This document shows, in pieces, positions 17,373 through 47,537 of a stretch of 64,000 nucleotides of DNA. A program made the position numbers and the translations under genes. This DNA is from an uncultured Dehalococcoidia bacterium. GTDB taxonomy: Bacteria; Chloroflexota; Dehalococcoidia; DSTF01; JACRBR01. The DNA lies in assembly GCA_964371355.1 (NCBI GenBank), contig CAYJMG010000004.1, positions 62,041 to 126,040 on the forward strand, written 5' to 3'. Numbering within the stretch: position 1 is the stretch's first letter; each line of letters starts with the position of its first letter. Under the pieces are notes generated by a model, which ran no database searches, had not been told where the DNA came from, and worked only from the letters and a program-made list of their open reading frames with translations.

Positions 17373-17559
17373 GCGGGGCGGCCCGCCCCGGTGCCGAAGC
17401 CGTGTATCACGGGCTTCATTGTAGGCGCAGGCAGGGCCTGCCGCCTGCCCTCGGCCGGGGGAAGCCGCCGGGGCGACCGGCCGACGGGCCGCGGGGCGAT
17501 GGTCGCCGTCACAATGGCGTCTCACCTGCCGGGTGGCACCCGTCACGCTGCCACGGGGG

Positions 17560-17567
17560 GCCGATAC
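17560..17567 (+). promoter_or_regulatory. sigma-28-like -10 element GCCGATAC
   Basis: 7/8 match to GCCGATAA, 34 nt upstream of the GGDEF-EAL ATG; weak -35. Confidence 0.45.
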
Positions 17568-17601
17568 TCGCTTGGGCGAACAAAGCCCCGGCGAGGAGAA
17601 C

Positions 17602-19782
17602 ATGCACCGACTGTCCCTTTCCATGCTTGCCGCGGCTGCGGCTGCCATCCTCGTGCTGATCACCGCCGTGCTGGCCGTGGCGATCCTTGACGACATCAAC
17701 GAAGCGCGCACGAAGGGCGACCAGCTGCAGCACGAGGTGGACGAGCTGCGGCTGCTGCGGCAGTTCGAGAGCGCGCTCTTCATCGAGGTCGGATCTATGC
17801 CGGCGTACATCCTGTCGCCGGACGAGCGGTACGCGCGGGACTTCGAGGACGCGCGGGTGCGAGCAGCATCGGCGCTGCAGCAACTGGAGGGGCTGGACAC
17901 CCACGGCGCGGAGGAGGACGCGGCGTTGCAGGCGCTAACGGCGAGCTACGCGGACCTGACGGCGCAGTCGAGGGGCAGCATGGACGCGCTGGTGGGGAAC
18001 CCGGCGGAGGTAGAGCTGACACCGGAGGGGATCGGCGCGTTCGTGGACGTGTTCTACGAGGTGCAGGCGTCGGCGGAGGCCGCCTCGACGGAGAACGAGG
18101 CGCGAGTCGTGGATCTGGATCAGCAGGTACGCGACGCGGTCCGTGAGCGGTCGCAGTTACTACTCGCGCTCGTCGGGTTCTGGTCGGGGGTGATCCTCGC
18201 GACGACGATCGCGGCGTACTGGCTGGTCGCGCGGCCGATCGTCGGTGTTTCGCACGTGGCGCGGGCGTTCGCGCGGGGCGAGCGCGCGGTGCGCGCGACG
18301 ATCTCGGGGCCGCGGGAATTGTCGCAGTTGGGCGCCGACATGAACTTCATGCTGGAGACGACGAACGAGCGGGCGCGGGCGCTGGAGATGGAAGCGCTGG
18401 AGCGCAGGCGCATCGCGGAGGCGCTGGAACGGACGCTGGAGTCGGAGCGGGCGCTACGAGACCAGTTGCAGCACCAGGCGTTCCACGATCCCCTGACGGG
18501 CCTGAGCAACCGCGCGCGGTTCATCGACCGGCTGGATCACGCGCTGGCGCGCAGGACGGTGCGGGCGGCGGGCCCGTCGCTGCTGTTCCTGGACCTGGAT
18601 GACTTCAAGTCGATCAACGACACGCTGGGGCACGCGGCGGGCGACGACCTGCTGCGGCAGGTCGGCGAACGGCTGCAGGCCTGCCTGAGGCCGGCGGACA
18701 CGCTGGCGCGGCTGGGCGGCGACGAGTTCGGCGCACTTATCGAGGAGGCGCTCGAAGAAGACGCCCTGATCGTGGCGGAGCGGATCCTGGATGCGCTACG
18801 CATGCCGTTCACGATCGCCGACCGCGAGGTGTTCAGCCGGGCGAGCGTGGGCGTGGTGCAGGCAAACCATGACGTAAGCGGTGCCGACCTGCTGCGCCAC
18901 GCCGACGTTGCGATGTACGTGGCGAAGAGCCAGGGGAAGTCGCGGGTTATTGCCTACCGTGACGACATGGAAGCGGCGATGATGGACGAGATCGCGCTGG
19001 AGAACGACCTGCAGCGCGCGTTGGAGCGAAACGAGCTGGTGGTGCAGTACCAGCCTGTCGTGGGCGTGGCGGACGAGGCTCTCCTGGGTTTCGAGGCGCT
19101 GTTGCGGTGGCGGCATCCGTCGCGGGGCATGATCGAGCCGGACGCCTTCATCTACATCGCCGAGCGCACGGGGCTGGTGATGCCGATCGGCGAGTGGGTG
19201 CTCCGACAGGCGTGCGACACGCTGGCGCGCTGGCAGGAGCGGTACCCGCACCACCCGTCTCTCACGATGTCGGTCAACGTCTCCGCCCGGCAACTGGGGC
19301 AGCCGGACTTCACGGACGCGGTGGCGGCCGCGCTACGGGACACCGGCATCGCGCCGAACACGCTGATCCTGGAGATCACGGAGTCGGCGATGATGGCGGA
19401 CGGCACGCGGGCGATCGGCTACTTGCAGACGCTGCACGAGCTGGGAGTACGGCTGGCGGTCGACGACTTCGGGACGGGATACTCGTCGCTGTCTTACCTG
19501 CGCAACTTCCCGCTCGACGAGTTGAAGGTCGACAAGTCGTTCGTCGATCACGTGACGGAATCGGGGAAAGAAGAGCATGTAGTGCGCTCGATCATCGGGC
19601 TGGCGAAGGCGCTGCACCTGAAGATCGTGGCGGAGGGCGTCGAGCGGGGCGACCAGTTGGAGATTCTGCGCGCGTTCGACTGTGACGAGGCGCAGGGGTT
19701 CTTGTTCAGCACGGCGATGGACGCGGACGACGCCGAACGGCTGCTGGAACGCGGAAGGCAGATGACGCGGGCTGCCGCCTGA
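17602..19782 (+). CDS. membrane sensor HAMP-GGDEF-EAL diguanylate cyclase/phosphodiesterase
   Basis: Two TM helices, HAMP, AFHDPLTGLSNR, RLGGDEF, FEALLRW, DDFGTGYSSL; GAGGAG RBS. Confidence 0.93.
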   Translation: MHRLSLSMLAAAAAAILVLITAVLAVAILDDINEARTKGDQLQHEVDELRLLRQFESALFIEVGSMPAYILSPDERYARDFEDARVRAASALQQLEGLDTHGAEEDAALQALTASYADLTAQSRGSMDALVGNPAEVELTPEGIGAFVDVFYEVQASAEAASTENEARVVDLDQQVRDAVRERSQLLLALVGFWSGVILATTIAAYWLVARPIVGVSHVARAFARGERAVRATISGPRELSQLGADMNFMLETTNERARALEMEALERRRIAEALERTLESERALRDQLQHQAFHDPLTGLSNRARFIDRLDHALARRTVRAAGPSLLFLDLDDFKSINDTLGHAAGDDLLRQVGERLQACLRPADTLARLGGDEFGALIEEALEEDALIVAERILDALRMPFTIADREVFSRASVGVVQANHDVSGADLLRHADVAMYVAKSQGKSRVIAYRDDMEAAMMDEIALENDLQRALERNELVVQYQPVVGVADEALLGFEALLRWRHPSRGMIEPDAFIYIAERTGLVMPIGEWVLRQACDTLARWQERYPHHPSLTMSVNVSARQLGQPDFTDAVAAALRDTGIAPNTLILEITESAMMADGTRAIGYLQTLHELGVRLAVDDFGTGYSSLSYLRNFPLDELKVDKSFVDHVTESGKEEHVVRSIIGLAKALHLKIVAEGVERGDQLEILRAFDCDEAQGFLFSTAMDADDAERLLERGRQMTRAAA

Positions 19783-19787
19783 GACGG

Positions 19788-20630
19788 CTACTTCAGGATA
19801 GGCAGCTCGGTGAGTTCCCAGAGGTTCCAGATCGTGAAGTCGGGGCTGGCGCCTTCGCCTTCGGCGTAGTTGCCCAGGGCGCGGCCGGTCTGGGCGCGGG
19901 TGGCGGGGGAGGTGGTGACGTTGCCGTCGCCGTGGGGGCCTTCGCCGACTTGCTCGTCCTCGTGAGGCGGGTCGGCCTTGCGGACGCGGCGCCAGACGGC
20001 GGTCATGCCGAGCGCCTGGGCACCCTGGACGTCAGCGCGGAGCGAGTCGCCGACCATAACGCACTCTTCGGCCGGCAAGCTCATCTCACGGAGGGTGTAG
20101 TTGTAGCACTCGGCGTGCGGCTTCATGTAGCCGATGTCGCAGGAGACGGCGACGGACTCGAAGTACCTGTCGAGGCCAAGCTCGCGCAGCTCCTCCTGGA
20201 AGCGCGGACCGCCGAACACGCGGTTGGTGACGCAGCCGATGCGGTAGCCCTTTTCCCGCAGCCAGTCGAGGGTCTGGAAGGCGTCATCGAACATGGTGCG
20301 ACCGAGCGCGAGGCCCCCGATGTTCCAGGCGTCCCAGAGACGGGCGCCCTGGTCGTAGGTGAGGTCGAGGCCCATGCGGTTGGCGATCTGGCGGACGACC
20401 TCGTTGAAGTCGGGGCTGACGCAATCGGCCTCGTAGGCAGTGCGGTCAGCCTTCTCGACGCCGAGGCGGATCTCGCGGCCGAGGAAGCGCAGTTCGCCCT
20501 CGAGGGGCACGCCGAACTCCTCAAGGGCGGCGGTGATACGGCGCATGGTCTCCATGCGGATGTCCATCGCGGCGGGCATTTTGGGGAAGTGCCAGAGGGT
20601 GTCGCCGAGGTCGAAGAGGATGGCTTTCAT
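19788..20630 (-). CDS. HAD-superfamily hydrolase
   Basis: ILFDLGDTL, VTN, KPH, MVGDSLRADVQGA. Confidence 0.9.
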   Translation of the reverse strand: MKAILFDLGDTLWHFPKMPAAMDIRMETMRRITAALEEFGVPLEGELRFLGREIRLGVEKADRTAYEADCVSPDFNEVVRQIANRMGLDLTYDQGARLWDAWNIGGLALGRTMFDDAFQTLDWLREKGYRIGCVTNRVFGGPRFQEELRELGLDRYFESVAVSCDIGYMKPHAECYNYTLREMSLPAEECVMVGDSLRADVQGAQALGMTAVWRRVRKADPPHEDEQVGEGPHGDGNVTTSPATRAQTGRALGNYAEGEGASPDFTIWNLWELTELPILK

Positions 20631-20732
20631 AGTTGGCAGTTCACAGTGGACAGTGGACAGATGCGTTGGTTGGTCGCTGGTCGAAGCGTAGCGTGACGGG
20701 ACGTGGCGGGCTAATCGGGCGGCCGCTTGACG

Positions 20733-20942
20733 TTAGTCGCGGCGGGAAGACGACTGGCTGCGGCCGAAGATGCCGAGGAGGGGAGAACCGGCGCCGAGGA
20801 GGAAGCCGAAGTCGTACCAGTTGCCGGCGCGCGCGAGGTTGTAGAAGGGGAAGCGGTCCCAGCCGCCGAAGACGTGGACGATGAGGATGAACCAGGCGGT
20901 GAAGCCGTTCCAGAAGCCCCAGAGGAAGTCCTGCCACCACAT
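20733..20942 (-). CDS. small Trp/Phe-rich membrane protein
   Basis: FLWGFWNGF...FY...GNWYDFGFLLG; host-like codon usage. Confidence 0.7.
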   Translation of the reverse strand: MWWQDFLWGFWNGFTAWFILIVHVFGGWDRFPFYNLARAGNWYDFGFLLGAGSPLLGIFGRSQSSSRRD

Positions 20943-21158
20943 CTTTAGTTCTCAGTTGTCAGGTTTCAGGTTCCAAGATCGCGACTTGAGGAGGCCTGCG
21001 CGAGGGCCGGATGACCCAATGTCATGCGCGGACGGCATGCCGCCGCGGCGCACGGGTGCCATAAAGATGGCCGATGACTGGCTCTCGGTGTCGTCCGGTG
21101 GGCTCTCCCAGCCGCTCGCGGTAGTGTGGTACGAAACCACGCGAGGAGGGCCACCCTG

Positions 21159-21980
21159 ATGCGGATGCACGGCATCGAGATCCCAGTCCACGACATGGAC
21201 CGCGCATACCTCTTCTATCGAGACATCTTGCGGTTCCCAGCGATAGGGCGATTCGGGGGCGACCTGTCCATGTTCTTCCTGAGTGATGTGCATGGTGGCA
21301 TGGCGATGCTGATTCGTTCTGAGGGCCCGCCGGATGGCCGGGGCTCGCGGCTGATCTTGACCGCGGATGGTATCGATCGCGAGCGGGCAGAGCTCGAGGC
21401 GATGGGCGTGACGTTCCTCGGAGGCACGGACCACAGCCCGCTCGGGTCGACCGCACACTTCCTCGACTCGGAGGGCAACCGGCTGGTGCTGTTCGACAAC
21501 ACGATCACGCAGTTGCTGCGCGAGCAGGCGCATGCATCCAACGCGGTGCTTGCCTCGGCGCTTGATGCGAGGCAAGCGACGTTGCTGGCGACGCTCTCCG
21601 GGCTAAGCGAGCACGACGCGGCGTCTCGCCCTGCCCCTGATGAGTGGCCGATCCTCGGCCACGTGGCGCACGTCGTGGACACGCTCGACTCGTGCGGAGT
21701 GATAGCGCGTGACCTGGCCGTTGGTCGCCAGCCCCCGCGCGACCTCCTCCTGCGCCGGGAGTACGCCCTCGAGACGCTCGCCAGCGGCCGCAGCGAGCTG
21801 GAGCGCGCATTCATGGGCGCGCAGGGCTGGCTGCGGGAACTGCCCGACGCGGACGGCGACGCCCGGCTCGTGCATGGCGTGTTCGGCGGGCTGAGCGCCC
21901 GAGAGTGGGCTGCCTTCATGCTCTTCCACATCGGCCTGCATACCGATCAGATCCGGGCGATTACGTCCACAAACCGGTGA
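21159..21980 (+). CDS. VOC/glyoxalase - DinB-like fusion protein
   Basis: FYRDIL...FLDSEGNRLVL N-terminal domain; RPAPDEWPILGHVAHV...HGVFGGL...FHIGLHTDQI C-terminal domain; GAGGAGG RBS. Confidence 0.8.
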   Translation: MRMHGIEIPVHDMDRAYLFYRDILRFPAIGRFGGDLSMFFLSDVHGGMAMLIRSEGPPDGRGSRLILTADGIDRERAELEAMGVTFLGGTDHSPLGSTAHFLDSEGNRLVLFDNTITQLLREQAHASNAVLASALDARQATLLATLSGLSEHDAASRPAPDEWPILGHVAHVVDTLDSCGVIARDLAVGRQPPRDLLLRREYALETLASGRSELERAFMGAQGWLRELPDADGDARLVHGVFGGLSAREWAAFMLFHIGLHTDQIRAITSTNR

Positions 21981-22362
21981 CGCGCCGGAGAGGCAGGCTG
22001 GCCGACGGTGACGCCCCGGCCAATTCGCCGCAACGTCCCTCGGACCGCCGTCCCAACGGCCGTTCCGTTCGCCAGCTGCGACACTTCCAGCTTGGCGAGT
22101 TCGGCACCATGCCCTCCTGTTGTGCGCGGACGGCATGCCAGCCAGGCGAACGGGTGCGCAGGGGTTTCAATGGCCGTTCTAGCGCGGCGAGCGGAGGTTT
22201 CGCATGGCCGGTTCTCTCGCCGGCGCGAGCGGTGCGCGGCAATCTATTCAATGGCCGGGAATCCATAGCGGAACCTTCACAGCGGCGATACATTTGTGAT
22301 GTAGTGAGGTCTGCGCCGGCGGCGTACGGCTGGCGGCTGTAGCAGGCCCGCAAGGAGTATCG

Positions 22363-24405
22363 ATGGAGACGTCTGTCGTCGCGTTGATCGTGATTGGCGG
22401 GGCGGCGCTGTTGTTCCTGCTGCTGGCGCTGTTCAGCGGGATGGTCGTGAATGTGGGCGGCCAACAGGTCGGCATCAGAGAACGCAAGTACTTCGGCAAG
22501 AGCCTGCCGGAGGGGCGCGTGGTGGCGATGCCGGGCGAGATCGGCATCCAGGCGCGGGTGTTGCAACCGGGGCTGACATTTCAGATCCCGTTCCTGTACA
22601 GCGTGACGAAGGACGACATGTTCGTCATAGGCGAGGACGAGGTGGGGCTAGTCGAGTCGATCGACGGGCTGCCGCTGGAACCGGGGAACATCTTCGGCCG
22701 GCGGGTGGCGAACCACGACTCGTACCAGGACGCCGAGGGGTTCCTGCGAAACGGCGGCCAGAAGGGGCCGCAGATCGACATCCTGCCGCCGGGCAAGTAT
22801 CGCATCAACACGTACCTGTTCCGGGTGCGGACGTCGGCCGCGGTGGTGATCGCGCAGAACCAGGTGGGGATCGTGAACGCGCGCGACGGCCAGCCGATCG
22901 GGCCGGGACGACTGCTGGCGCACCAGGTGCAGGGGCACCAGGGGTTCCAAGACGGGGAGGCGTTCGTGGGGGCGGGCGGCCAACGCGGCCCGCAGATCGA
23001 GGTGATGCTGCCGGGGCGGTACCGGATCAACTCCGACCTGTTCAGCGTGGAGATCCAGCCGGCGACGGTGGTGCAGGCGAACCAGGTGGGGCTGGTGACG
23101 GCGAAGGACGGCGTCCCGCTGGAACCCGGCGAGCTGGTGGCTTCGGTCACCGAGGGCCACAGCGACTTTCAGGATGCCTCATCGTTCCTCTCGAACGGCG
23201 GGCAGCGGGGGCCACAGTACGACCTGCTGAAGCCGGGGACGTACTACATCAACCCGTTGATGCTGGACGTGAAGCTGGACAACGTGATCGTGGTCGAGCG
23301 TGGCGAAGTCGCGGTGCTGGTGTCGAATGTCGGCAAAGAGCCGCGGCAAATGACGGAGGACGAGCGGCTTGGCTTCGGGCAAGAGCGTTACGTGGTGCCG
23401 GCAGGGTACCGGGGCATCCAGTCCGAAGTAGCGGGGCCGGGCGTGTACTACCTGAACCGCTGGGCGTACATCGCGTACATCATCCCGACGACGAACCTGA
23501 CGATCGACTGGGCCGACAAGGGGTCCATGGGCGATCCGGGAGAGCCGGCGGGAGGGCCGGGCCACCTGCAGCTCTTCAACCCGCTTGCCGTGATCAGCAA
23601 AGACGGGTTCGAGATGCGAGTGAGCGTGAAAGTCGTCATCCGGGTGCGGCCGGACCAGGCGCCGCTGATGGTGGCGAAGATCGGATCGATCGAGAAGCTG
23701 ATCGACAACGTCATCCACCCGATGATCGACTCGTCGTTCCGGAACCAGGCGTCCTCGACGGAAGCGATGAACTTCATGCAGGACCGCGCGCTGGAGCAGG
23801 CGAAGGCCGAGGCGCGGGCGCGGGACGAACTGGAAAAGTACCACGTCGAGTGCGTGTCGGTGCTGATCTCGCAGATCATCCTGCCGCAGGAGCTAATGGA
23901 AATTCAGACGCGGCGCGTCATCGCGGCGCAGCAGCAGGCGATGTTCGTCGAGCAGCAGAAGGCGGAAGAGAAGCGCATCGATACGGAGAACACGCGGGCG
24001 AAGGCGGACAAGCAGCCGGAGCTGGTGGCGGCGCAGATCTCGGTGCAGGTGGCGGAGCAGACGAAGCAACAGACCATCCTGACGGCCGAGGGCCGGGCGC
24101 GCGCCGTCGAGTTGGAGGGCGCGGCCGAGGGCCAGAAGATCCTGGCGGTGGGCCAGGCGACGGCGGAGGCATACGAGCAGCAGGTGGCAGCGGTGGGGCA
24201 GTTGAACCTGGCCGGGATCGAGGTCACGAAGTCAATAGCGGCGGCCGGGTTGAAGATCACGCCCGACATCATGGTGGGAGGCGGTGGAGACGGCGGCGGG
24301 GCGAACATCTTCTCCGCATTCATCGCTCAACTGCTGGCCGGGAACCGGGTCGCGCTGTCTGGCCCGAACGGCGGGACGCAGCCGCCGACGGCGCCGCAGG
24401 CATAA
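22363..24405 (+). CDS. SPFH/flotillin family protein with three internal 74-aa repeats
   Basis: N-terminal TM helix, repeats at 22639/22861/23083, SPFH domain (SKDGFEM...IDSSFRN), AEG-rich coiled coil. Confidence 0.85.
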   Translation: METSVVALIVIGGAALLFLLLALFSGMVVNVGGQQVGIRERKYFGKSLPEGRVVAMPGEIGIQARVLQPGLTFQIPFLYSVTKDDMFVIGEDEVGLVESIDGLPLEPGNIFGRRVANHDSYQDAEGFLRNGGQKGPQIDILPPGKYRINTYLFRVRTSAAVVIAQNQVGIVNARDGQPIGPGRLLAHQVQGHQGFQDGEAFVGAGGQRGPQIEVMLPGRYRINSDLFSVEIQPATVVQANQVGLVTAKDGVPLEPGELVASVTEGHSDFQDASSFLSNGGQRGPQYDLLKPGTYYINPLMLDVKLDNVIVVERGEVAVLVSNVGKEPRQMTEDERLGFGQERYVVPAGYRGIQSEVAGPGVYYLNRWAYIAYIIPTTNLTIDWADKGSMGDPGEPAGGPGHLQLFNPLAVISKDGFEMRVSVKVVIRVRPDQAPLMVAKIGSIEKLIDNVIHPMIDSSFRNQASSTEAMNFMQDRALEQAKAEARARDELEKYHVECVSVLISQIILPQELMEIQTRRVIAAQQQAMFVEQQKAEEKRIDTENTRAKADKQPELVAAQISVQVAEQTKQQTILTAEGRARAVELEGAAEGQKILAVGQATAEAYEQQVAAVGQLNLAGIEVTKSIAAAGLKITPDIMVGGGGDGGGANIFSAFIAQLLAGNRVALSGPNGGTQPPTAPQA

Positions 24406-24534
24406 GCGCCACGGGCGCCACCCCGGGGGTGCCCAGGCGGGCATGCCGAATCTGTGGGAATCATGGGAGCCGGGCGAGGTCGACGATCTCGCCCGGCTCC
24501 TGTTATGTCGCAGGGTTATCACCGCATTTCGGCA

Positions 24535-36412: not shown

Positions 36413-37897
36413 CTAGGCGAAGACGTTGACGGCGCGCTGGGCGGCTTCGATGAGGGGGATGGGGTACACGCCGAAGGCCAGGACGCCGGCGGCGGCAAGC
36501 ACGAGGATGCCCTGCGAGAAGAGCGGCGTCGGGACCTCGGCGCGATCCTCGGCCTCGGAGAGGAACATCTGGCGGGCGACGCCCATGTAGTAGTAGGCGG
36601 AGACGACGGTGTTCAGGACGGCCACGACGACGAGCCAGACGAGATCGGACTGGACGGCGGCGTTGAAGATGTAGATCTTCGCGATGAAGCCGGCCGTGGG
36701 CGGGAGGCCGGTGAGTGAGAGCAAGCAGAACAGCAGCACCCACGCCGGAACGGGAGCGCGGCGCACCATACCGCCGTAGTCTTCGATCTCGTCGCTGCCC
36801 GTCTTGTTCGAGATGGCCATGACGGCGAAGAAGGCGCCCAGGTTGGTGAAGGCGTAGGTGGCCAGGAAGAAGACGACCCCGCTGGCCCCGAGCTGCGAAT
36901 CGCCGTCCGTGGTGGCGGAGATGGCGGCGAGTCCGACGAGGAAGTTGCCAGCCTGGGCGATCGAGCTGTAGCCGAGCAGACGGCGGATGTTGGTCTGCCG
37001 GATGGCCATGACGTTGCCGACGGTCATCGAGACGGCGGCGAGTACCGCGAAGAGCATCTTCCAGTCGTTGCCGACGAAGGTGTCGGGGCCGAAGCCCTCG
37101 AAGAAGATGCGCATGACGACGGCGAACGCGGCGGCCTTGCTGCCCACGGAGAGGAAGGCGGCGACGGGCGTGGGCGCGCCCTGGTAGACGTCCGGCGTCC
37201 ACATCTGGAAGGGGACGATGGCCATCTTGAAGCCGAAGCCGGCCGCCAGAAAGACCATGCTAACGATGAGGGCCGAGCGCATTCCCTCATCCCCGGAGGC
37301 GATGGCGGTGGCGATGGAGGGCGAGCCGTCGGTGGTGACGAGGCGGGTAGTGCCGGAGATGCCGAACAGGAAGGCCATGCCGTACAGGATGACGGCGGAC
37401 GAGACGGCGCCGAGCAGGAGGTACTTCAGCGCGGCTTCGCTGCCCTTATCATCGCGGAGGAAGCCCGCGAGGACGAACTGCGTGATGCTGGTGAGTTCGA
37501 GCGCGACGAAGATAGCGACGAGGTCGCGGGCGCCGGAGAGCAGCATCATGCCGGAGGTGGCGATGAGGATCAGGGCGATGAACTCGCCCTGGCGGTCGCC
37601 GAAGCGGCCCAGGTAGTCCCACGAGGCGATGATGACGGCTCCCGAGACGCCGATGAAGAGGAAGGTGAAGAAGATGCTGAAGTTGTCGAGCGCCATGGAG
37701 TCGCTGAAGAACGACGCCTCGCGGTCGCGGAGGATGAGCATCACCAGCCACGTCGCGGCGACGCCGAGGCCGGTGATGGCGATGGCAGTGAGCACCCGGC
37801 GATCCTCCCGCCGCATGACCATGTCGACGAGGAAGATGAGGCCGGCGGTGACCATGACGGCGAGGACAGGGCCGAGGCGGTCGAGATCCTGCAGCAT
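36413..37897 (-). CDS. nuoN: NADH-quinone oxidoreductase subunit N
   Basis: SEAALKYLLLG, GFKMAIVPFQMWTPDVYQGAPTP, RLLGYSSIAQAG. Confidence 0.95.
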   Translation of the reverse strand: MLQDLDRLGPVLAVMVTAGLIFLVDMVMRREDRRVLTAIAITGLGVAATWLVMLILRDREASFFSDSMALDNFSIFFTFLFIGVSGAVIIASWDYLGRFGDRQGEFIALILIATSGMMLLSGARDLVAIFVALELTSITQFVLAGFLRDDKGSEAALKYLLLGAVSSAVILYGMAFLFGISGTTRLVTTDGSPSIATAIASGDEGMRSALIVSMVFLAAGFGFKMAIVPFQMWTPDVYQGAPTPVAAFLSVGSKAAAFAVVMRIFFEGFGPDTFVGNDWKMLFAVLAAVSMTVGNVMAIRQTNIRRLLGYSSIAQAGNFLVGLAAISATTDGDSQLGASGVVFFLATYAFTNLGAFFAVMAISNKTGSDEIEDYGGMVRRAPVPAWVLLFCLLSLTGLPPTAGFIAKIYIFNAAVQSDLVWLVVVAVLNTVVSAYYYMGVARQMFLSEAEDRAEVPTPLFSQGILVLAAAGVLAFGVYPIPLIEAAQRAVNVFA

Positions 37898-39396
37898 CAG
37901 CTCAGCGCCCCCACAATGTTGATGATGCCGGTGTCGAGGAGGTCGACGACGAGCGCCGGGTAGACGCCGACGGCGATGATGACGGCGACGAGCGCGGCCA
38001 TGGGGAGCTGCTCCCACCAGTTGTTGGCGTCGGGCAGCGACGCCCATCGCTCGTTTTTCGGCCCGAAGAAGACGCGCTGGACCATCCAGGTGATGTAGCC
38101 GGCGGCGAGCAGGATCCCGATGACGGAGATGATCGTCGGGGCGGTGTACTTGTCGAAGCTGCCGAGGAACACCATCATCTCGGCGACAAAGCCGGACATC
38201 GCGGGCAGCCCGAGCGAGGCAAGGCCGGCAACGATCGTAACCGTCGCGGCGAGCGGCATGGTGTGCGCGAGACCGGAGAGCTGGTCGATATCGCGCGTGT
38301 GGGTGCGGTCGTAGATGATGCCGACCATGACGAACAGCAGGCCAGTGATGGTGCCGTGCGTGAACATCTGGAGGGCGGCGCCGTTCAAGCTGAGATGGCC
38401 GAGGGCGGAGATGCCGAGCAGCACGTAGCCCATGTGGCTGACAGAGGAATAGGCGACCAGCCGCTTCAAATCTTTCTGCCGCAACGTGAGCAGGGCGCCG
38501 TAGATAACGCTGATGGCCGCCAGCGTTGCGAGCCAGACGCCGTAGTCCTCGGCCGTGCGCGGCATGAGTGTGATGAGGATGCGGAGGATGCCGTAGCCGC
38601 CCATCTTCAACAGGACGCCGGCAAGGATAACGGAGACGGCGGTCGGAGCGTCCGTATGAGCATCGGGCAGCCAAGTGTGCAGCGGGAACATCGGCAGCTT
38701 GACGGCGAACGCGATGAAGATGAAGCCGAAGATGACCCAGAGCGGCAACAGCGTGTCCGTGATGGTGCTCTGCTGGAGCGCGACCATGTCGAAGGTGGGC
38801 GTGGGTTCGGCGCTGAAGCCCATCACCAGGAAACCGACGAGCATGAAAGCGGAGCCGGCCACCGTGTAGAGCAGGAACTTCATCGCGGAGTACTCTTTGC
38901 GGCCGCTGCCCCAGACGGAGATGAGCATGTACATGGGCAGCAGCTCGACCTCCCAGAATAGGAAGAACATGATGAGGTCGAGTGAGGTGAACACGCCCAG
39001 GACGCCGGTCTCGAGCGCAAGCAGCCAGATGAAGTACTCCTTCGTCCGCAGCTTCACGCCGAACGAGATGAGCGTGGCGATGACGAAGAGGAACGTCGTG
39101 AGGAAGACCATCGTAATGCCGAGGCCGTCGACGCCCATGTGGAACTGCACGTCGAAGCCGGCGGTGGCGGCGTCGATCCAGGTGGCCTGCGAATCGAACT
39201 GGAAGGCGTCGGCGCCTGCAACGCCGGGGCTGCGGTCGAACCCGAGCAACAGGATGAGCGACGTGATGAAGGTGGTCAGCGTCGCGACAAGCGCGAGCCA
39301 CTTCGCCTGGTCCTGGCTCTCGCGCTGGGCCGTCAGCGCGATCACGGCCGCGGCCACGGCGGGGAAGAAGACGGTGAAGACGAGGACTCCGCTCAT
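37897..39396 (-). CDS. nuoM: NADH-quinone oxidoreductase subunit M
   Basis: FFLFWEVELLPMY, VKLPMFPLHTWLPDAHTDAPT, LKMGGYG, YSSVSHMG. Confidence 0.95.
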   Translation of the reverse strand: MSGVLVFTVFFPAVAAAVIALTAQRESQDQAKWLALVATLTTFITSLILLLGFDRSPGVAGADAFQFDSQATWIDAATAGFDVQFHMGVDGLGITMVFLTTFLFVIATLISFGVKLRTKEYFIWLLALETGVLGVFTSLDLIMFFLFWEVELLPMYMLISVWGSGRKEYSAMKFLLYTVAGSAFMLVGFLVMGFSAEPTPTFDMVALQQSTITDTLLPLWVIFGFIFIAFAVKLPMFPLHTWLPDAHTDAPTAVSVILAGVLLKMGGYGILRILITLMPRTAEDYGVWLATLAAISVIYGALLTLRQKDLKRLVAYSSVSHMGYVLLGISALGHLSLNGAALQMFTHGTITGLLFVMVGIIYDRTHTRDIDQLSGLAHTMPLAATVTIVAGLASLGLPAMSGFVAEMMVFLGSFDKYTAPTIISVIGILLAAGYITWMVQRVFFGPKNERWASLPDANNWWEQLPMAALVAVIIAVGVYPALVVDLLDTGIINIVGALS

Positions 39397-39398
39397 CG

Positions 39399-41372
39399 CT
39401 ACCGCCCCTCGATCAGCACGAGCATCAGGAACGATGCAACGATGAGGCCGGCGAAACCGACGGTGCCGTAGGCCTGCACCGAGCCGGACTGCACCCAGCG
39501 GAGGCGGTCGCCGGCCCAACGGCTGACCTGGCCGGAGCCGTTGACCGCGAAGTCGATGATGTTGGTGTCGACCCACTGCAGGACGCGGCAGACGTTGCCG
39601 TACAGCAGATCGCGCACGATGACGTTCTCGTACAGCTCGTCCATGTAGTACTTGCGGGCGACCAGCGTGTGGACAGGCCCCCAGATCTTCTGCAGCGACT
39701 CGGACGACACGACCTTCGCCTGGTAGATGGCGTAGGCGAGCGCGATCCCGGCGCCTCCCAGGGCGAGCGAGCCCAGGGCGATGGCGAGGTTGAACTCCTC
39801 GTGGTGCAGCGCCTCGGCCGAGGACTCGGGGAGGGCCCCCTCAAGGATATGGGCGAGGCCGTCGGCGGAGCCGAAGGGAAGGTTCACAAAGCCGGCGGCG
39901 AACGCCGGGACGGCGAGGACGAGCAGCGGCAGGGCCATCACCCAACCAGACTCGTGCGGCATACCGTGGCCGCCGCCATGCGCTCCATGCTCGGGCTCTT
40001 CGCCACCCTTGTAGTCGCCCTCGAAGGTGAGGAAGACGGCGCGGAAGGAGTAGAAGGCGGTCATGAAGACGACGGCCATGGCGACGACGAAGAGCAGCTT
40101 GTCGTCGGTCCAGGCGGCGCCCAGGATCTCGTCCTTCGACCAGAAGCCGGCGAAGGGAAAGATACCGGCCAGGCTGAGCGAGCCGACGGCGAAGGTTGCG
40201 TAGGTGATGGGCATGTACTTCCGCAGGCCGCCCATCTTCCGCATGTCGAACGTGTTGGTGGCGTGATTCACCGAGCCGGAGCCGAGGAAGAGGAGCGCTT
40301 TGAAAAACGCGTGCGTGAACAGGTGGAAGATGGCGGCGATGTACCCGCCCACGCCGAGCGCCAGCATCATGTAGCCGAGCTGCGAGAGAGTGGAATACGC
40401 AAGCACGCGCTTGATGTCCGTCATGACGATGCCCATCGAGGCGGCGAAGATGGCGGTGAAGCCGCCGACGTAGGCGACCGTCGTCATGGCCTCGTCCGAC
40501 GCCTGAAAGACGGGAAACATGCGGGCGACCAGGTAGACGCCGGCGGCGACCATGGTGGCGGCGTGGATGAGGGCGGAGACGGGCGTCGGGCCCTCCATGG
40601 CGTCGGGGAGCCAGACGTGCAGCGGAAACTGGGCCGACTTGCCGACGGCGCCGGCAAAGACGCAGAGTGCGAACAGCGTGATGACGCCGTCGCTGAGGCC
40701 GCCGTGCTGGGCCAGCTCCTGGATGAGCGGGATGTTGAAGGTGTCCGCCTTCGTGAAGATGAGCAGTATGCCGATCGCGAAGCCCACGTCGCCCAGGCGG
40801 GTCGTGAGGAAGGCCTTCTTCGCCGCGTCGCCCGCGGACTTCTTATGGAACCAGAAGCCAATCAGCAGGTACGAGCCGAGGCCCACAAGCTCCCAGAACA
40901 CGTAGACGATGAGGATGCTGTCGACGATCACGAGGCCGAGCATGGCGGCGGTGAAGAGCGACATCCACATGAAGTAGCGGGAGTAGCCGGTGTCGCCCTC
41001 CATGTAGCCCTGGGAGTAGACCTGCACGAGGAGCGAGACGGACGTGACGACGACGAGCATGATGGCGCTGAGGCCGTCGATGCGGAGGCCGACGTCGACG
41101 TGGAGGCTGGGTCCGCCGGCCTGCTGGAGCAGGACATTGTCGGTGCTGATCTTCAACCACTCGTGAGCGCCGAAACCGAGCGCGTGGCCGTCGTTGGCGA
41201 TAACGCTGTCGAGCGCCCAGAGCGAGAGGGCGAAGGCGGCGCCGATGGCGGCAATGGTGACATATCCCGACAGCTTCGGATACGGGCGGGTAACGGACGC
41301 AATGGTCAGGAGCGACGCCACCGGCAGGAGGAAGATCGCCCAGACGGCTGCCTCGGGGATTTCGGGTAGCAC
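39399..41372 (-). CDS. nuoL: NADH-quinone oxidoreductase subunit L
   Basis: GKSAQFPLHVWLPDAMEGPTPVSALIHAATMV, HAFFKALLFL. Confidence 0.96.
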   Translation of the reverse strand: MLPEIPEAAVWAIFLLPVASLLTIASVTRPYPKLSGYVTIAAIGAAFALSLWALDSVIANDGHALGFGAHEWLKISTDNVLLQQAGGPSLHVDVGLRIDGLSAIMLVVVTSVSLLVQVYSQGYMEGDTGYSRYFMWMSLFTAAMLGLVIVDSILIVYVFWELVGLGSYLLIGFWFHKKSAGDAAKKAFLTTRLGDVGFAIGILLIFTKADTFNIPLIQELAQHGGLSDGVITLFALCVFAGAVGKSAQFPLHVWLPDAMEGPTPVSALIHAATMVAAGVYLVARMFPVFQASDEAMTTVAYVGGFTAIFAASMGIVMTDIKRVLAYSTLSQLGYMMLALGVGGYIAAIFHLFTHAFFKALLFLGSGSVNHATNTFDMRKMGGLRKYMPITYATFAVGSLSLAGIFPFAGFWSKDEILGAAWTDDKLLFVVAMAVVFMTAFYSFRAVFLTFEGDYKGGEEPEHGAHGGGHGMPHESGWVMALPLLVLAVPAFAAGFVNLPFGSADGLAHILEGALPESSAEALHHEEFNLAIALGSLALGGAGIALAYAIYQAKVVSSESLQKIWGPVHTLVARKYYMDELYENVIVRDLLYGNVCRVLQWVDTNIIDFAVNGSGQVSRWAGDRLRWVQSGSVQAYGTVGFAGLIVASFLMLVLIEGR

Positions 41373-41564
41373 CTAGATTTTCCTCATGATTTCCTGCGCT
41401 ACGTGGGTCTTGCTATCGGGCACCCAGATCTCGCGAGGCTGGGACATGGGGGCGTCGGACTGGAGGGGTGGGACGACGCGGTTCGACACGCCCTCGGCGT
41501 CGAAGAGTTCCTTCCACACCTCGGCGGCGTACCCGTTCTTCACGTCCATAAGCTTTGACCACAT
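41373..41564 (-). CDS. small DUF2007-like protein inside the nuo operon
   Basis: W..L....N...AE..K.L...EG......EIWVP....A.EI pattern; stop abuts the nuoL GTG. Confidence 0.65.
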   Translation of the reverse strand: MWSKLMDVKNGYAAEVWKELFDAEGVSNRVVPPLQSDAPMSQPREIWVPDSKTHVAQEIMRKI

Positions 41565-41645
41565 GGGCTGGTCGTTGGGCGTTAGGCGTTGGGCGTCAGG
41601 GGGACGGCCCCTAACGACTACCGACTAACGACCAACTCCCCTCCT

Positions 41646-41981
41646 TTACCATCTCAACAGATCGATCTCGTCGATGTTTACGGTCTCCCGGTGCTTGTAG
41701 ATAGCCACGGCCAGGGCCAGGGCGACGGCGGCCTCGGCGGCGGCGACGGTGACGATGAAGACGGCGAACACCTGGCCATCGAGCGGCTGTTCCGACTCGA
41801 TGAAGCGGGAGAACGCGAGCAGGGTGACGTTGACGGCGTTCAGCATCAGCTCGATGCCCATCAGGACGCCGATGGCGTTGCGCTTCGAGAGCGCGACGTA
41901 CAGACCGATGGCGAACAGGATCGCGCCGACGACGAGCACTTCCTCGAGGTGCAACGTGAGAGCGAGGAGCGGAGCGGTCAT
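41646..41981 (-). CDS. nuoK: NADH-quinone oxidoreductase subunit K
   Basis: LMGIELMLNAVN, GQVFAVF, VAAAEAAV. Confidence 0.95.
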   Translation of the reverse strand: MTAPLLALTLHLEEVLVVGAILFAIGLYVALSKRNAIGVLMGIELMLNAVNVTLLAFSRFIESEQPLDGQVFAVFIVTVAAAEAAVALALAVAIYKHRETVNIDEIDLLRW

Positions 41982-42481
41982 TCGGGCTCCTCCTCTTTCG
42001 TCAGGACGATGGCGCCGATCATCGCGACCATGAGCAGGACGGAGGCGACCTCGAACGGGACGACGTAGGGCTTGAGGAAGGCCTCGCCGAGCGAGGCGGC
42101 GGTGGCACTGAAGGCGCCGCGGTCTGAGATGGCCCAGTCAGTATCGAGCGTGACGAAGACGACGACAGCGAGCACGAGACCGGCCAGCACCAGCGCGGGC
42201 ACCTGGAACACGGTTTCGGAGTTCTGGCGGTCGGCGGCGGGGGTGAGCATGACGGCGAAGGTCATGAGCACGCTGACGGCGCCGGCGTAGATCAGCACCT
42301 GGACGACGGCTACGAAATCGGCGGAGAGCACGATGTACATGCCCGCCGCGCCCACGAAGGTGAGGGCGAGGAACAGCACCGCCTGGATCAGCTCGCGGAC
42401 GGCCGCGACCATCAGGGCGCAGCCGACGGTGGTGGCGGCGAGGAGCCAGAAGGCGATGACGATGCCGTTGTCGGCGATCAT
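41978..42481 (-). CDS. nuoJ: NADH-quinone oxidoreductase subunit J
   Basis: ADFVAVVQVLIYAGAVSVL, PFEVASVLL. Confidence 0.94.
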   Translation of the reverse strand: MIADNGIVIAFWLLAATTVGCALMVAAVRELIQAVLFLALTFVGAAGMYIVLSADFVAVVQVLIYAGAVSVLMTFAVMLTPAADRQNSETVFQVPALVLAGLVLAVVVFVTLDTDWAISDRGAFSATAASLGEAFLKPYVVPFEVASVLLMVAMIGAIVLTKEEEPE

Positions 42482-43824
42482 GCTCGGCCTCCCTCGTGCG
42501 CGGCCGGTCTCCGCGGCGACTCTTCGAAGGACGACTGTGCCGCAAATTCGGCCGCGGTGACGGCCGGCAGCGACGGCACGTCGATGCCGGGGTAGAACCG
42601 CGGTCGCGTCGGGAAGCGCTGGAACTTCGGGGCGAAGAACTTCACGAAGCCGACGATGAGGGCGGCCGTGAGCGCGCCATTCACGGCGATGAACAGCGGG
42701 ATCCAGAACGCGGCGCTCCAGCCGCTCTCCTCCCACACCAGCACCTCGGCGGCGACGACGACGACGTTGATGATGGCCATCGGCGTCAGCCACTTCCAGG
42801 CGAAATTGAGGAGCTGGTCGATACGGAAGCGGGGCAGCGTGCCGCGGGTCCAGACGAAGAGGAAGTAGACGGTGTACACCTTGCCGATGAAGAGCATCCA
42901 GCCGGGGATGAGTTCGTCGAGCTTGTAGGTCCACCAGCCGCCGAGGAAGAGCGTGGCGATGATGGCGGAGACAGAGACGGCGTTGATCAGCTCGGCGGCA
43001 TAGAACAGGCCGAACTTCATGCCCGAGTACTCCGTGTGGTAGCCGCCGACGATCTCGGACTCGGCCTCGGCGATGTCGGCGGGTGTGCGATTGAGTTCAG
43101 CGGAGATGGCGAAGAAGTAGATGAGGAAAGCGAGGGGCTGGAGCATGACCATGAAGGCCCAGTTCTCCTCCTGGAAGAGGACGATGCCCTGCAGGTTCAT
43201 GGTGCCGGCGAACAGCACGACACCGAGCAGCCCGGCGACGATGGGGATCTCGTACGACACGAGCATGGCGATGACGCGCATCGCGCCGAAGAGCGAGTAC
43301 TTGTTGTTGCTGCTGTACCCCGCCATGAAGACGGAGAGCACGGCGAGGGACGACATGCCGAGGATGTACAACAGGCCGACGTCAAGGCTGGCGAGCACCA
43401 TGTGGCGGCCCCAGGGGACGACGGCGAAGACGGCGATGCCCGGCACAGTGAAGGCGATCGGTGCGACGGTGTAAATGAAGCCGGGTGCGGAGGCGGGCTG
43501 CAGCACTTCCTTCTGCATGAGCTTGATGGCGTCGGCGACGGGCTGCAGGAGGCCGAAAGGGCCGAGACGGTTGGGTCCCAGGCGCGACTGCATGCGGCCG
43601 ACGACGCGGCGCTCGACCCAGATGTTGATGATGGCAACGCCGCCGACGAAGGCGACAATGCCGATGGTGCCGAGCAAGCCGGAGATGACGTAGATCGACC
43701 AGTCCGGGAACCCCCAGTCCTCCAGGCGGCCGTAGATCATCCGCGTGAAATTCGAGAGGTCGCGCGCGTCCCACCAGTAGCCCGTGATCAAGTCCTGGAG
43801 CAAGCTCATCGGGAAGAGCGTCAT
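42478..43824 (-). CDS. nuoH: NADH-quinone oxidoreductase subunit H
   Basis: ERRVVGRMQSRLGPNR, QPVADAIKL, EAESEIVGGYHTEYSG, TLPRFRIDQL. Confidence 0.96.
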   Translation of the reverse strand: MTLFPMSLLQDLITGYWWDARDLSNFTRMIYGRLEDWGFPDWSIYVISGLLGTIGIVAFVGGVAIINIWVERRVVGRMQSRLGPNRLGPFGLLQPVADAIKLMQKEVLQPASAPGFIYTVAPIAFTVPGIAVFAVVPWGRHMVLASLDVGLLYILGMSSLAVLSVFMAGYSSNNKYSLFGAMRVIAMLVSYEIPIVAGLLGVVLFAGTMNLQGIVLFQEENWAFMVMLQPLAFLIYFFAISAELNRTPADIAEAESEIVGGYHTEYSGMKFGLFYAAELINAVSVSAIIATLFLGGWWTYKLDELIPGWMLFIGKVYTVYFLFVWTRGTLPRFRIDQLLNFAWKWLTPMAIINVVVVAAEVLVWEESGWSAAFWIPLFIAVNGALTAALIVGFVKFFAPKFQRFPTRPRFYPGIDVPSLPAVTAAEFAAQSSFEESPRRPAAHEGGRA

Positions 43825-44927
43825 CGGTCCAGCTCCCCCACGTTGATATCGATGCTGCCCAGCGTGACGATGGCGTCCGCGATGGTCTGGCCGACGGTCA
43901 TCTCGCGCAGGACGCTGAGGTTGATGAGCGAAGGCGCACGCACGTGCCAGCGGTAGGGGGCGGGGCCACCATCGCTGACGACGTAGAAGCCCAACTCGCC
44001 CTTCGGCGACTCCACGCGCGAGTACGCCTCGCCGGCGGGCGGGCGGAGGGCGAGGGGCACGTCGACCTTATGTGGGCCATCGGGAAGCTCGCCGACGGCC
44101 TGGCGGATGATGCGCAGACTCTGCTTCATCTCCTCGATCCGGATGGTCATGCGGTCGTACGCGTCGCCGTTGTAGCCGACGGGGATGTCGAACTTCATGC
44201 GGTCATACACGCAGTAGGGGTCCGCCTTGCGGATATCCCAGGCGATGCCGGTGCTGCGCAGCACGGGCCCGCTGAGCGAGGCGTTGATCGCGACCTCCGG
44301 TGTCACGACGCCCACGTCGCGGGCGCGCATCATGATGATCTCGTTGCCGACGATCAGCTCCTCGTACTCCTCGAATGCCTTCGGCAGCTCGTCGTTCACC
44401 AGCTTGTCGAGAGCGGGGAGGAACTCGTCGGGGATATCGAAGGCGACACCGCCGATCCGCATGTAGTTGGTGGTGAGGCGGGCGCCACAGGTCATTTCGA
44501 AGAGGTCGAGGACGCGCTCGCGGTCGCGGAAGCACCACATGACGGGGGTCTGCCAGGCGCCGCAGTCATTGATGAAGGCGCCCGTGGCCATGCAGTGGCT
44601 GGCGACGCGCTGGAGTTCGTTGAAGATGACGCGGAGATACTGGGCGCGTTCCGGCACCTCGATGCCTGCGAGCTTCTCGACCGAGAGACAGTAGCCCAGA
44701 TTGCCTGCCATGGCGGCGAGGTAGTCCATGCGGTCGGTGAACGGGATGTTCTGAGTGTACGTGCGCTCCTCGGCCAGCTTCTCCATGCTGCGGTGGAGGT
44801 AGCCGACGACCATCTTCACGTCGACGATGCGTTCGCCGTCGATCTTCGCGACCATGCGGAACACGCCGTGCGTGGACGGGTGCTGCGGTCCGATGTTGAC
44901 TTCGACGGGCTCTGACTTGATAGGCAT
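43821..44927 (-). CDS. nuoD: NADH-quinone oxidoreductase subunit D
   Basis: NIGPQHPSTHGV, GYLHRSMEK, DRMDY, ESPKGE, GELDR; no NiFe CxxC motifs. Confidence 0.95.
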   Translation of the reverse strand: MPIKSEPVEVNIGPQHPSTHGVFRMVAKIDGERIVDVKMVVGYLHRSMEKLAEERTYTQNIPFTDRMDYLAAMAGNLGYCLSVEKLAGIEVPERAQYLRVIFNELQRVASHCMATGAFINDCGAWQTPVMWCFRDRERVLDLFEMTCGARLTTNYMRIGGVAFDIPDEFLPALDKLVNDELPKAFEEYEELIVGNEIIMMRARDVGVVTPEVAINASLSGPVLRSTGIAWDIRKADPYCVYDRMKFDIPVGYNGDAYDRMTIRIEEMKQSLRIIRQAVGELPDGPHKVDVPLALRPPAGEAYSRVESPKGELGFYVVSDGGPAPYRWHVRAPSLINLSVLREMTVGQTIADAIVTLGSIDINVGELDR

Positions 44928-44935
44928 CGTCGGGG

Positions 44936-44972
44936 CCCTCACCCCGGCCCCACTCCCGGAACGGGAGAGGGC
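44936..44972 (+). repeat. CCCTCACCCC...GGGAGAGGG-type palindromic intergenic repeat
   Basis: ccctcaccccggccccactcccggaacgggagagggc in the nuoC-nuoD spacer. Confidence 0.55.
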
Positions 44973-44983
44973 GTGCGCGTGTC

Positions 44984-45535
44984 TTACTGGCCGGTGCCCG
45001 CGTGCTTCGGGCGGAACTCCTGGCCGGTCTGGCCGGGCACCTGCTCCGGGAACTGGCTGAGGCCGGGCTTGCGTCCCCCGGGGAGCGCCATGAAGTCCTT
45101 GCGCAGCGGATGTCCGGGGAAGGAGTCCCACAGAAACAGCCGCGTGAGCTCGGGATGGCCCTCGAACCGGACGCCCATCAGGTCGTAGACCTCGCGCTCC
45201 TGGAGCAGCGCGCCGGACCAGAGCGGCGAGATGGACGGGATGACGGGCTGGTCGCGATCGCAGGGCACTTTGACCTCGAAGAGGTGGTTCTGAGCGAGCG
45301 ACGCGAAGTGGTAGACCATGTCGATACGCGTGATCATGTCGACGCTGCAAAGCTGGGTGAGGAACTTGCCGTCGAGCTGCTCGTCGTCCCGGATGACGCG
45401 CATCGCCTCGAACATGCGGGCGGGAGCGAGCGTAACGTAGCCATCGGCGACCGACTGGACGGCGTCGGGCAGCGTCGCGCGGATGCGATCGGCGACCTCG
45501 GGCCCGGGCAGGGTGACCGTCTTCGGGTGCGGCAT
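44984..45535 (-). CDS. nuoC: NADH-quinone oxidoreductase subunit C
   Basis: EREVYDLMGVRFEGHP, FPGHPLRKDF. Confidence 0.94.
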   Translation of the reverse strand: MPHPKTVTLPGPEVADRIRATLPDAVQSVADGYVTLAPARMFEAMRVIRDDEQLDGKFLTQLCSVDMITRIDMVYHFASLAQNHLFEVKVPCDRDQPVIPSISPLWSGALLQEREVYDLMGVRFEGHPELTRLFLWDSFPGHPLRKDFMALPGGRKPGLSQFPEQVPGQTGQEFRPKHAGTGQ

Positions 45536-45906
45536 CAGAGCCACTCCATGGCGCGCTTCCGCCACGCGTACGCATAACCGACGAAGAGGATGGCGATGAA
45601 GATGAGGGCCTCCACGAAGGCGTACAGACCGAGCTGGCGGTAGGCGACGGCCCACGGGTACAGGAAGACGGCTTCGACGTCGAAGACGACGAAGAGCAGG
45701 CCGAACAGGTAGTAGCGCACGTTGTAGCGGACGTGGGCGTCGCCGATGGGCACCATGCCGCACTCGTAAACGGACTCCTTGATGGGGTCGGGCTTGCTTG
45801 GGCGGAGCTTGAACACGCCGAGCGCAACCGAGGCCACGATCGGGATGAGCGGGAAGATGACGGCAAAGACGAGGAGGAAGCCGGCCCGTCCGAACTGGTC
45901 GATCAC
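45535..45906 (-). CDS. nuoA: NADH-quinone oxidoreductase subunit A
   Basis: YECG, RYYLFGLLFVVFDVEAVFLYPWA; GTG start with GAGG RBS. Confidence 0.95.
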   Translation of the reverse strand: MIDQFGRAGFLLVFAVIFPLIPIVASVALGVFKLRPSKPDPIKESVYECGMVPIGDAHVRYNVRYYLFGLLFVVFDVEAVFLYPWAVAYRQLGLYAFVEALIFIAILFVGYAYAWRKRAMEWL

Positions 45907-46221
45907 TGGCGCCTCGCGACATGGGCGGGACGCCGTCCCGCGTCCACGTCCATACTCCGGAACCGGGTGAGGACGGGCCGGAGCACCGATCCGGCGGCCA
46001 TCCGGTGCGCAGCCGAAGCTAGAAGCCGGGCCCGAGGCATGCTGGCCGAAGCTGCGCCCAAACTTTGTGAATTCTGGCGCGAAGCCTATCACAGCTATAG
46101 CACCCGAACAATGGAGCGGGAAAGCGAGGGAAGGTCGCGGCTTCGATGCGGATTCCGGCGCGCGCCAATCCGGGAAACGGGGTGTCAGACCAAGAACGTC
46201 CCCTTAGAGGCCATTGCGCCC

Positions 46222-46466: not shown

Positions 46467-47042
46467 ATGGACATGACCCGCCGGCTGGGCGCCATTCACA
46501 CACACAGGGGAGCAGCCAGCGCCACATTTGCGCTGACGCTGCTGGCCGTGCAGTTCGCCGCGCTCCGCTTCGCGCCGTCGGAGATCCTGGTGCGGGTCAT
46601 CCTGCCCGCGACGATCATCGCCGTCCCGCTAGCGCTGTGGGTCTACCGGGACCGGATCGGCGTGTGGGTGATGTACGTCGGCCTCGCCGCCAACCTCGCG
46701 CCGATACTCGCAAACGGCGGGCTGATGCCCATCCACTACGACACAGTGGTAAGCGCGATCGGTGAGGAACGAGCCGCGCGGTACACGCCCGGCGAATGGG
46801 TCGCGGGCTCCAAGGACGTGCTCGTAGCCGAGGACGAAGGCCGCCTGATGGAACTGGGCGACCAGATCATCATCCGTACGGCGAGCGGCGGCATGGTGGC
46901 CAGCCCGGGAGACGTCGTGGTGTGGTGCGGGCTGCTGATCCTCACGGCGGAGGCTTCGATCGCCTGGCAGCGTCGCCAGCGGGCCGAGCGCGCCGTTATG
47001 TCGCGGCCGCACCAAGCAGCGGAGGGGGGCGCAGCCACATAG
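46467..47042 (+). CDS. DUF5317-like membrane protein
   Basis: About 4 TM helices with N...ILANGGLMP, LGD.I and SPGDV motifs recognised as DUF5317; start may be 46473. Confidence 0.75.
   Translation: MDMTRRLGAIHTHRGAASATFALTLLAVQFAALRFAPSEILVRVILPATIIAVPLALWVYRDRIGVWVMYVGLAANLAPILANGGLMPIHYDTVVSAIGEERAARYTPGEWVAGSKDVLVAEDEGRLMELGDQIIIRTASGGMVASPGDVVVWCGLLILTAEASIAWQRRQRAERAVMSRPHQAAEGGAAT

Positions 47043-47252: not shown

Positions 47253-47537
<285 letters not shown>

Follow-up and report, generated by a model that had tools for sequence, protein, structure and literature searches.

A nuoACDHJKLMN operon in Dehalococcoidia and its probable iron-sulfur partners at other loci

Complex I genes are co-localised in 86% of genomes (PMC4453560), and split gene sets were reported from most clades (bioRxiv 2025.03.13.643058). 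In Acidobacteria, nuoACDHJKLMN operons without nuoB and nuoI were described (Hausmann et al., bioRxiv 10.1101/197269), with nuoB and nuoI listed as separate genes (supplementary table S2b, PMC6018796; the main text of PMC6018796 does not contain the corresponding operon terms), and a NuoACDHJKLM locus was reported for an OPB41 actinobacterium (PMC9686372). An operon of this type lies in the 64,000-nucleotide stretch of an uncultured Dehalococcoidia bacterium analysed here (assembly GCA_964371355.1, contig CAYJMG010000004.1, positions 62,041 to 126,040), referred to as the window. Judged by gene content and motifs, the window operon, a lone nuoB, an nuoI-nuoG pair and an nuoE-nuoF pair probably encode together a normal 14-subunit proton-pumping NADH:menaquinone oxidoreductase, which is probably co-regulated by Rex.

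With the acidobacterial operons, the window operon shares the gene order and the lack of nuoB and nuoI, whereas one operon of the acidobacterial genomes usually includes nuoEFG, and the available text contains no mention of an I-G pairing, of the small gene termed x below or of a Rex box. The 11-subunit complex I-like enzyme of Dehalococcoides mccartyi (PMC6005880) belongs to the same class, in which the intact operons form an orthologous lineage, but its operon includes nuoB and nuoI, and NuoEFG is absent. Compared with the bacterial 14-subunit complex I (E. coli Nuo, Thermus Nqo), all 14 core subunits are likewise encoded and the iron-sulfur (Fe-S), quinone-site and proton-path motifs are retained; different are the distribution over four loci, a NuoF of HydB-like length, an FdsA-like NuoG with a four-Cys insertion, and gene x.

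The window operon and the loci of the missing genes

The first-pass annotation of the window, made from the sequence alone, had described a complex I operon without nuoB, nuoI and nuoEFG. This gene order, nuoA-C-D-H-J-K-x-L-M-N on the minus strand (45906-36413), was confirmed by gene calls and NCBIfam profile matches:

45535..45906, minus strand: nuoA (NCBIfam PRK07756, E 1.8e-40; FDVEAVFL motif)
44984..45535, minus strand: nuoC (TIGR01961, E 8.6e-31; start overlaps the nuoA stop)
43821..44927, minus strand: nuoD (NuoD models above cut-off; His16, His20, Tyr69, Asp121)
42478..43824, minus strand: nuoH (PRK06076.1-2 above cut-off; 448 aa, N- and C-terminal extensions)
41978..42481, minus strand: nuoJ (start overlaps the nuoH stop)
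41646..41981, minus strand: nuoK (NuoK models above cut-off)
41373..41564, minus strand: gene x (63-aa DUF2007-like protein; stop abuts the nuoL start)
39399..41372, minus strand: nuoL (TIGR01974 above cut-off; charged motifs present)
37897..39396, minus strand: nuoM (TIGR01972 above cut-off; charged motifs present)
36413..37897, minus strand: nuoN (TIGR01770 above cut-off; charged motifs present)

The overlaps given earlier for nuoA/nuoC (TGATG, 45533-45537) and nuoH/nuoJ (ATGA, 42478-42481) were both exact, and the D/H and J/K pairs overlap as well. The absence of B and I also proved to be clean: tblastn of the whole window (E<=1) with the B and I paralogs of the genome and with E, F and G gave no match and no remnant of any of these five genes inside the operon, the best match anywhere in the window being a ferredoxin at 47292-47492 (E 0.004). 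As closest loci, the best 80 of 542 confirmed NuoD candidates were compared (64-96% identity, mostly titled Dehalococcoidia or Chloroflexota). B or I was matched in none of these 80 loci, A adjoins C in 78 of 78 loci with both genes, and H adjoins J in 72 of 72. Because of this constancy, misassembly and chance do not account for the layout; an assembly gap or artefact was ruled out by the overlapping genes and the 80 agreeing loci.

The genome (96% complete, 77 contigs, numbered here with C) was searched for the missing genes, with matches at three PF01058, several NuoI-like, two NuoF-like and three NuoD-like loci. Four loci encode complex I genes in addition to the window:

C28:50-694: lone nuoB (TIGR01957 above cut-off)
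C20:54151-57328: nuoI overlapping nuoG (877 aa)
C15:98887-101271: nuoE-nuoF
C19:37379-47778: second operon, complete 11-gene nuoABCDHIJKLMN

The proposal that the Fe-S genes had been moved elsewhere was borne out, since B, I, E, F and G were all found at other loci; a fusion of relocated genes, which had also been considered, was not seen. The NuoA-N gene set is complete: the window contributes nine genes, C28 has B, C20 has I and G, and C15 has E and F. For I, G, E and F the scores fall under the NCBIfam cut-offs, but the matches are to these families. In total, NuoD, true NuoB and NuoI-type genes are each present exactly twice in the genome, alongside one Ech/Hyf-like set. The C28 nuoB and the C20 nuoI are left unpaired because the C19 operon carries its own B and I, and the window and C19 operons are old paralogs (35-47% identical; B 58%).

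Three further candidates were rejected. The E-F fusion and the 938-aa protein on C17 are a formate dehydrogenase (TIGR01591 above cut-off) and not an N-module, the B- and I-like genes on C7 are part of their own Ech/Hyf-like cluster, and no gene co-transcribed after the lone nuoB was found, as the contig stops at a repeated transposase element right after the nuoB stop. The C7 cluster (16938-24470, L023) comprises NuoD-, NuoI- and NuoB-like genes with a third-position GC content below that of the nuo operons. The transposase element, presumably IS481-like, begins at the lone nuoB stop codon (C28:1-55, L024), is also present on C76, and breaks the contig. Neighbours of the lone nuoB in 20 relatives are non-nuo genes that vary between families; three are near the second operon, with the lone nuoB 2-7 kb upstream of it and divergent (L115, L116 and L127 in G012, G023 and G015).

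Upstream of nuoA, the window contains an FdxA-type ferredoxin gene (47253-47537, minus strand), found in 13 of the 80 loci and in close relatives only, and a DUF5317 gene (46467-47042, plus strand), likewise seen in close relatives only. No RNA runs were listed.

Partner assignment and spread of the split layout

Co-occurrence was tallied by hand in 40 relatives of at least 80% completeness. Orthologs of the window-type D, the lone B, I, G and F were all present in 34 of the 40 (including the unpublished genome G020), all absent from four genomes of genus g20, and present except for one or two in the remaining two, each 84% complete. G027 (98%), G031 and G058 have a single nuoH, which lies within the split operon, and one NuoB ortholog. 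The g20 genomes keep the second operon; the split-type complex was not found there, and three of their loci (L188, L190 and L191 in G030, G037 and G026) hold a distant canonical nuoA-B-C-D-E-F-G-H-I-J-K-L-M-N operon, which was likely acquired as a replacement.

Trees of D and B (28 rows: 9 split, 15 intact, 4 second-operon) and of I (27 rows) were calculated with midpoint roots; G051 was left out of the I tree for its long insertion, and an earlier quick tree with G051 did not settle the I placement. Second-operon rows were separated from all others with 100/100 for D, 100/100 for B (bootstrap not fully settled) and 99/96 for I. The window-type D, lone B and lone I grouped with the intact Dehalococcoidia operons and away from the C19-type rows, and for B (95/89) and I (99/93) a single branch set the split rows apart from the others.

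The possibility that a single NuoE/F/G module is shared or swapped between the window-type arm and the 11-subunit C19 arm is unlikely; the swappable module of the first-pass annotation would be possible for this single NuoEFG set only. In favour of sharing, EFG genes are missing from the C19 operon, which has the same Rex-type box, and the second operon of G055 is preceded, at a distance of 3 kb, by an E-F-G-like cluster. Sharing is countered by the overlap of nuoG with the nuoI of the window type and by the g20 genomes, where the second operon persists in the absence of these E/F/G orthologs. The G055 cluster (L143, C50) may itself be a formate dehydrogenase that feeds the second-operon complex, because its G keeps the Cys of the DHC motif as in formate dehydrogenase.

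The class was sampled with an even set of 91 genomes, of which 81 had a NuoD match and 74 were typed by best hit; the other seven contained second-type or fragmentary D only. B and I lay within 4 kb of D in 44 of the 74 genomes (intact layout; D identity 53-63%), neither was near D in 25 (split layout; D identity 64-100%), and five were mixed, owing to contig ends or an I under the cut-off. Of 29 intact genomes, 23 have F adjoining G, and no intact genome has I next to G. Of the split clade, 28 genomes were compared: the starts of I and G are no more than 4 kb apart in 23 and those of B and I no more than 5 kb apart in nine, and F is beside G in none (best hit). B-I-G is contiguous in G058 and G055 and has 1-4 kb inserted in G102, G118 and G048, and four f21 genomes have a B-I pair with G 3-10 kb off.

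As a proposed order of events, an ancestor would have had nuoABCDHIJK-x-LMN and a separate nuoEFG; nuoB and nuoI would have moved together next to nuoG, forming a B-I-G operon, which later would have broken up into B alone and a separate I-G pair. On the simplest reading of the gene neighbourhoods, B-I-G is likely the intermediate between the intact and split layouts. The first-pass annotation had stated that an ordinary nuoB/nuoI pair elsewhere, with the split common in the lineage, would reduce the case to a simple rearrangement, and this is largely what was found: B and I are ordinary orthologs with no sign of damage, and a large clade has the split as its usual layout. The rearrangement is real and extends through the lineage, and the complex I that it affects is likely functional.

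Within the intact group, the operon of G051 (L152:7930-9813, minus strand) encodes a NuoI of 627 aa with Fer4_20 and a pyridine nucleotide-disulphide oxidoreductase domain between the Fe-S motifs, possibly a built-in NAD(P)H input that replaces NuoEFG.

Catalytic motifs, electron input and gene x

Of the four N2 Cys of the lone NuoB, C51, C52 and C147 are invariant and C117 is kept in at least 90% of 44 sequences, the tandem CC included. NuoI contains eight Cys in two CxxCxxCxxxCP motifs of the [4Fe-4S] type. In NuoD, H16, H20 and Y69 are invariant and D121 is kept in at least 90% of 48 sequences, residues taken here to form the quinone site. All 15 membrane-subunit and related patterns tried were present, including the charged motifs in A, H, K, L, M and N, which presumably mark the proton path. 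A non-canonical complex, the alternative offered in the first-pass annotation, is not supported, given these intact quinone-site and proton-path motifs. The gene menD is present above cut-off, and menaquinone is therefore the likely acceptor.

For the 14-subunit complex, the window operon would supply the membrane arm together with NuoC and NuoD. NADH would be oxidised at the NuoF flavin, electrons would pass through the clusters of NuoF, NuoG and NuoI to cluster N2 of NuoB and on to menaquinone in the NuoD/B/H pocket, and protons would be pumped by NuoH/J/K/A and L/M/N.

The input module itself is of an unusual kind. NuoF (627 aa) matches PF01512 and PF10589 above cut-off and keeps NADEGDPG and CG[D/E]E, with a Gly-rich loop that is altered in this family (GHSGSFF vs GRGGAAF). 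Its HydB-like length includes a thioredoxin-like domain at the N-terminus, a B2-like His/Cys site and, at the C-terminus, a ferredoxin-like domain; the motifs were mapped to the Bfu cluster names by assumption. In the C-terminal domain, the first CxxCxxC is absent in 21 of 21 sequences and another is retained in 17 of 21, without its middle Cys in the window genome, and the N-terminal segment displayed has at most one Cys. NuoG is most similar to FdsA (6TG9, E 3e-98). The Cys or selenocysteine ligand of molybdenum or tungsten and the accompanying His are absent in all 20 I-linked NuoG and present in the separate C17 formate dehydrogenase. Where the N5 site needs His and three Cys, NuoG has a segment with His and seven Cys, which is also found in the G copies next to F in intact genomes; the four-Cys insertion suggests an extra metal site.

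A complex of the same assembly whose HydB/FdsGBA-derived module also takes electrons from ferredoxin (confurcation) or from another donor, instead of plain NADH, is very unlikely. In its favour are the extra NuoF domains with one CxxCxxC in most sequences, the FdsA-like NuoG, the ferredoxin gene about 1.3 kb upstream of nuoA, and the Nuo-Bfu complexes proposed earlier (PMC9304861), where complex I is likewise fed by a multi-cluster NuoG and a NuoF lengthened by additional domains at both termini. Bifurcation requires clusters B1-B5 (PMC9304861); here, the first C-terminal motif is missing throughout, the remaining one is degenerate in the window genome, and NuoF falls outside the Bfu definition, as it lacks the Cys ligands of two or more accessory clusters. 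The genes also lie outside the nuo operon, unlike those of the Nuo-Bfu/BfuABC modules, and the ferredoxin neighbour is limited to loci with NuoD at least 85% identical.

That the window operon borrows NuoB and NuoI from C19, or is a redox-independent transporter or relic without Fe-S subunits, is scarcely credible even though the operon itself holds no Fe-S gene, for the lone B and I orthologs co-occur with it and are the sole ones in G027, G031 and G058, the catalytic motifs are preserved, and NuoD identity is 86-93% in most of the family.

All 68 split loci reaching beyond nuoK carry gene x between nuoK and nuoL; it predates the split because intact operons carry it too (10 of 15). M1, A14, H54, V55 and E58 are invariant across 58 sequences. 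The match to PF09413 (DUF2007) was below the cut-off (E 4e-4; 20.9 bits vs 25.7), and 12% of the members of its Atlas neighbour cluster are DUF2007 proteins. The AlphaFold 2 model (predicted local distance difference test score 96.7) has a beta-alpha-beta-beta-alpha order and resembles the EscJ/PrgK ring-building domain (Z 8.8) and RPA1041 (2HFV, Z 7.3). Foldseek gave no match at E<=0.001 and no complex I subunit among the top matches listed. A search for fusion partners gave four matches among longer proteins, each on a single contig and none consistent, which is weak evidence. The product would likely be an accessory subunit or assembly factor.

Predicted Rex operators and meaning for the class

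Upstream regions were scored against the TTGTGAA-N4-TTCACAA-type Rex operator consensus at 14 positions (PMC5355995, PMC2883068). The features found were:

46065..46082, minus strand: Rex-type operator-like box upstream of nuoA (10/14 consensus positions, right half-site perfect)
46095..46102, minus strand: candidate extended -10 element, 12 bases upstream of the box (inferred by eye)
C43:17066: Rex-type box at nosZ
C16:92491: Rex-type box at atpB
C33:26702: Rex-type box at coxB
C1:291227 and C1:291273: Rex-type boxes at a cytochrome b operon

The genome encodes rex (NCBIfam Rex models above cut-off). Boxes scored 10 of 14 at nuoA and nuoI, and 11 at nuoB, nuoE, nuoA2 of the second operon and rex; genome-wide, with a rough open reading frame caller, at least 10 was reached by 103 of 2933 genes and at least 11 by 22 of 2933. 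Among split-type nuoA upstream regions, the window included, the best site reached at least 10 in 74 of 81 (shuffles 3.9%), a count in which, as in all counts from relatives, kin are not independent and some genomes are present twice. The same score was reached for the second operon in 4 of 7, for intact nuoA in 6 of 15 (shuffles 10%) and for intact nuoE in 1 of 3. When only the core shared with CRP was scored, the flanks were Rex-like (T1 78/124, T12 95/124, A18 95/124), with position 7 not conserved. By eye, a candidate -10 was recognised at much the same place in most of 17 upstream regions; a sigma-70 scan reported nothing upstream of nuoA. The 16 genes next to sites of at least 11 that were scanned include cytochrome b, coxB, atpB, nosZ, glutamate synthase and molybdopterin oxidoreductase as well as unrelated genes, and the boxes at nosZ, atpB, coxB and cytochrome b suggest a full respiratory regulon.

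The first-pass idea of separately regulated Fe-S genes is contradicted at the motif level, as a Rex-type box is common to all loci; the scattered complex I loci are probably co-regulated by Rex via these predicted operators. Streptomyces avermitilis offers a parallel, with the same consensus and with nuoA1-N1, atp and rex among its Rex targets; there, binding was demonstrated at one nuo promoter by electrophoretic mobility shift assay and chromatin immunoprecipitation, whereas here four promoters carry predicted boxes only (PMC5355995).

Several points weigh against a Rex-controlled 14-subunit NADH:menaquinone oxidoreductase. The co-loss in g20 is a single event and not four, kin being not independent. 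In the D tree, eight of nine split rows stood together and G055 took no settled position, which leaves a single origin of the split uncertain. With a single NuoEFG set for two membrane arms, the arm that it serves is deduced from co-occurrence and from the linkage of I to G, and NADH is not certain as the donor because of the altered Gly-rich loop and HydB-like length of NuoF. Boxes of at least 10 are patchy in relatives (nuoB 13/30, nuoI 6/11, nuoE 9/14), the left half-site of the nuoA box is degenerate, and a CRP-family gene is also present in the genome.

No published description was found, in a search that left subscription literature largely outside, of the split layout or the B-I-G operon in Dehalococcoidia, of Rex boxes in this class, of gene x, or of such an NADH module, which resembles an eroded bifurcating or formate-dehydrogenase module. 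Tentatively, and with more doubt than confidence, aerobic Dehalococcoidia may have a distinct complex I, with a DUF2007-type fifteenth subunit (x), an NADH module derived from formate dehydrogenase or bifurcating enzymes, an extra metal site in NuoG, Fe-S genes lifted out as a unit, and four Rex operators; if so, the input module could be dosed separately or shared between two membrane arms.

The absence of NuoB and NuoI from the operon is an effect of gene layout and not a new enzyme, and in surveys based on operons the complex I of these genomes would count as broken or partial. Of remaining interest are the B-I-G intermediate, the Rex boxes, gene x and the input module derived from formate dehydrogenase and HydB. 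The shared Rex operators are a plausible means of holding stoichiometry, and gene x and the extra Cys site of NuoG are concrete targets for a complex I structure from cultured Dehalococcoidia. The class would preserve the steps of an operon break-up, from the intact layout through B-I-G to B and I-G apart.

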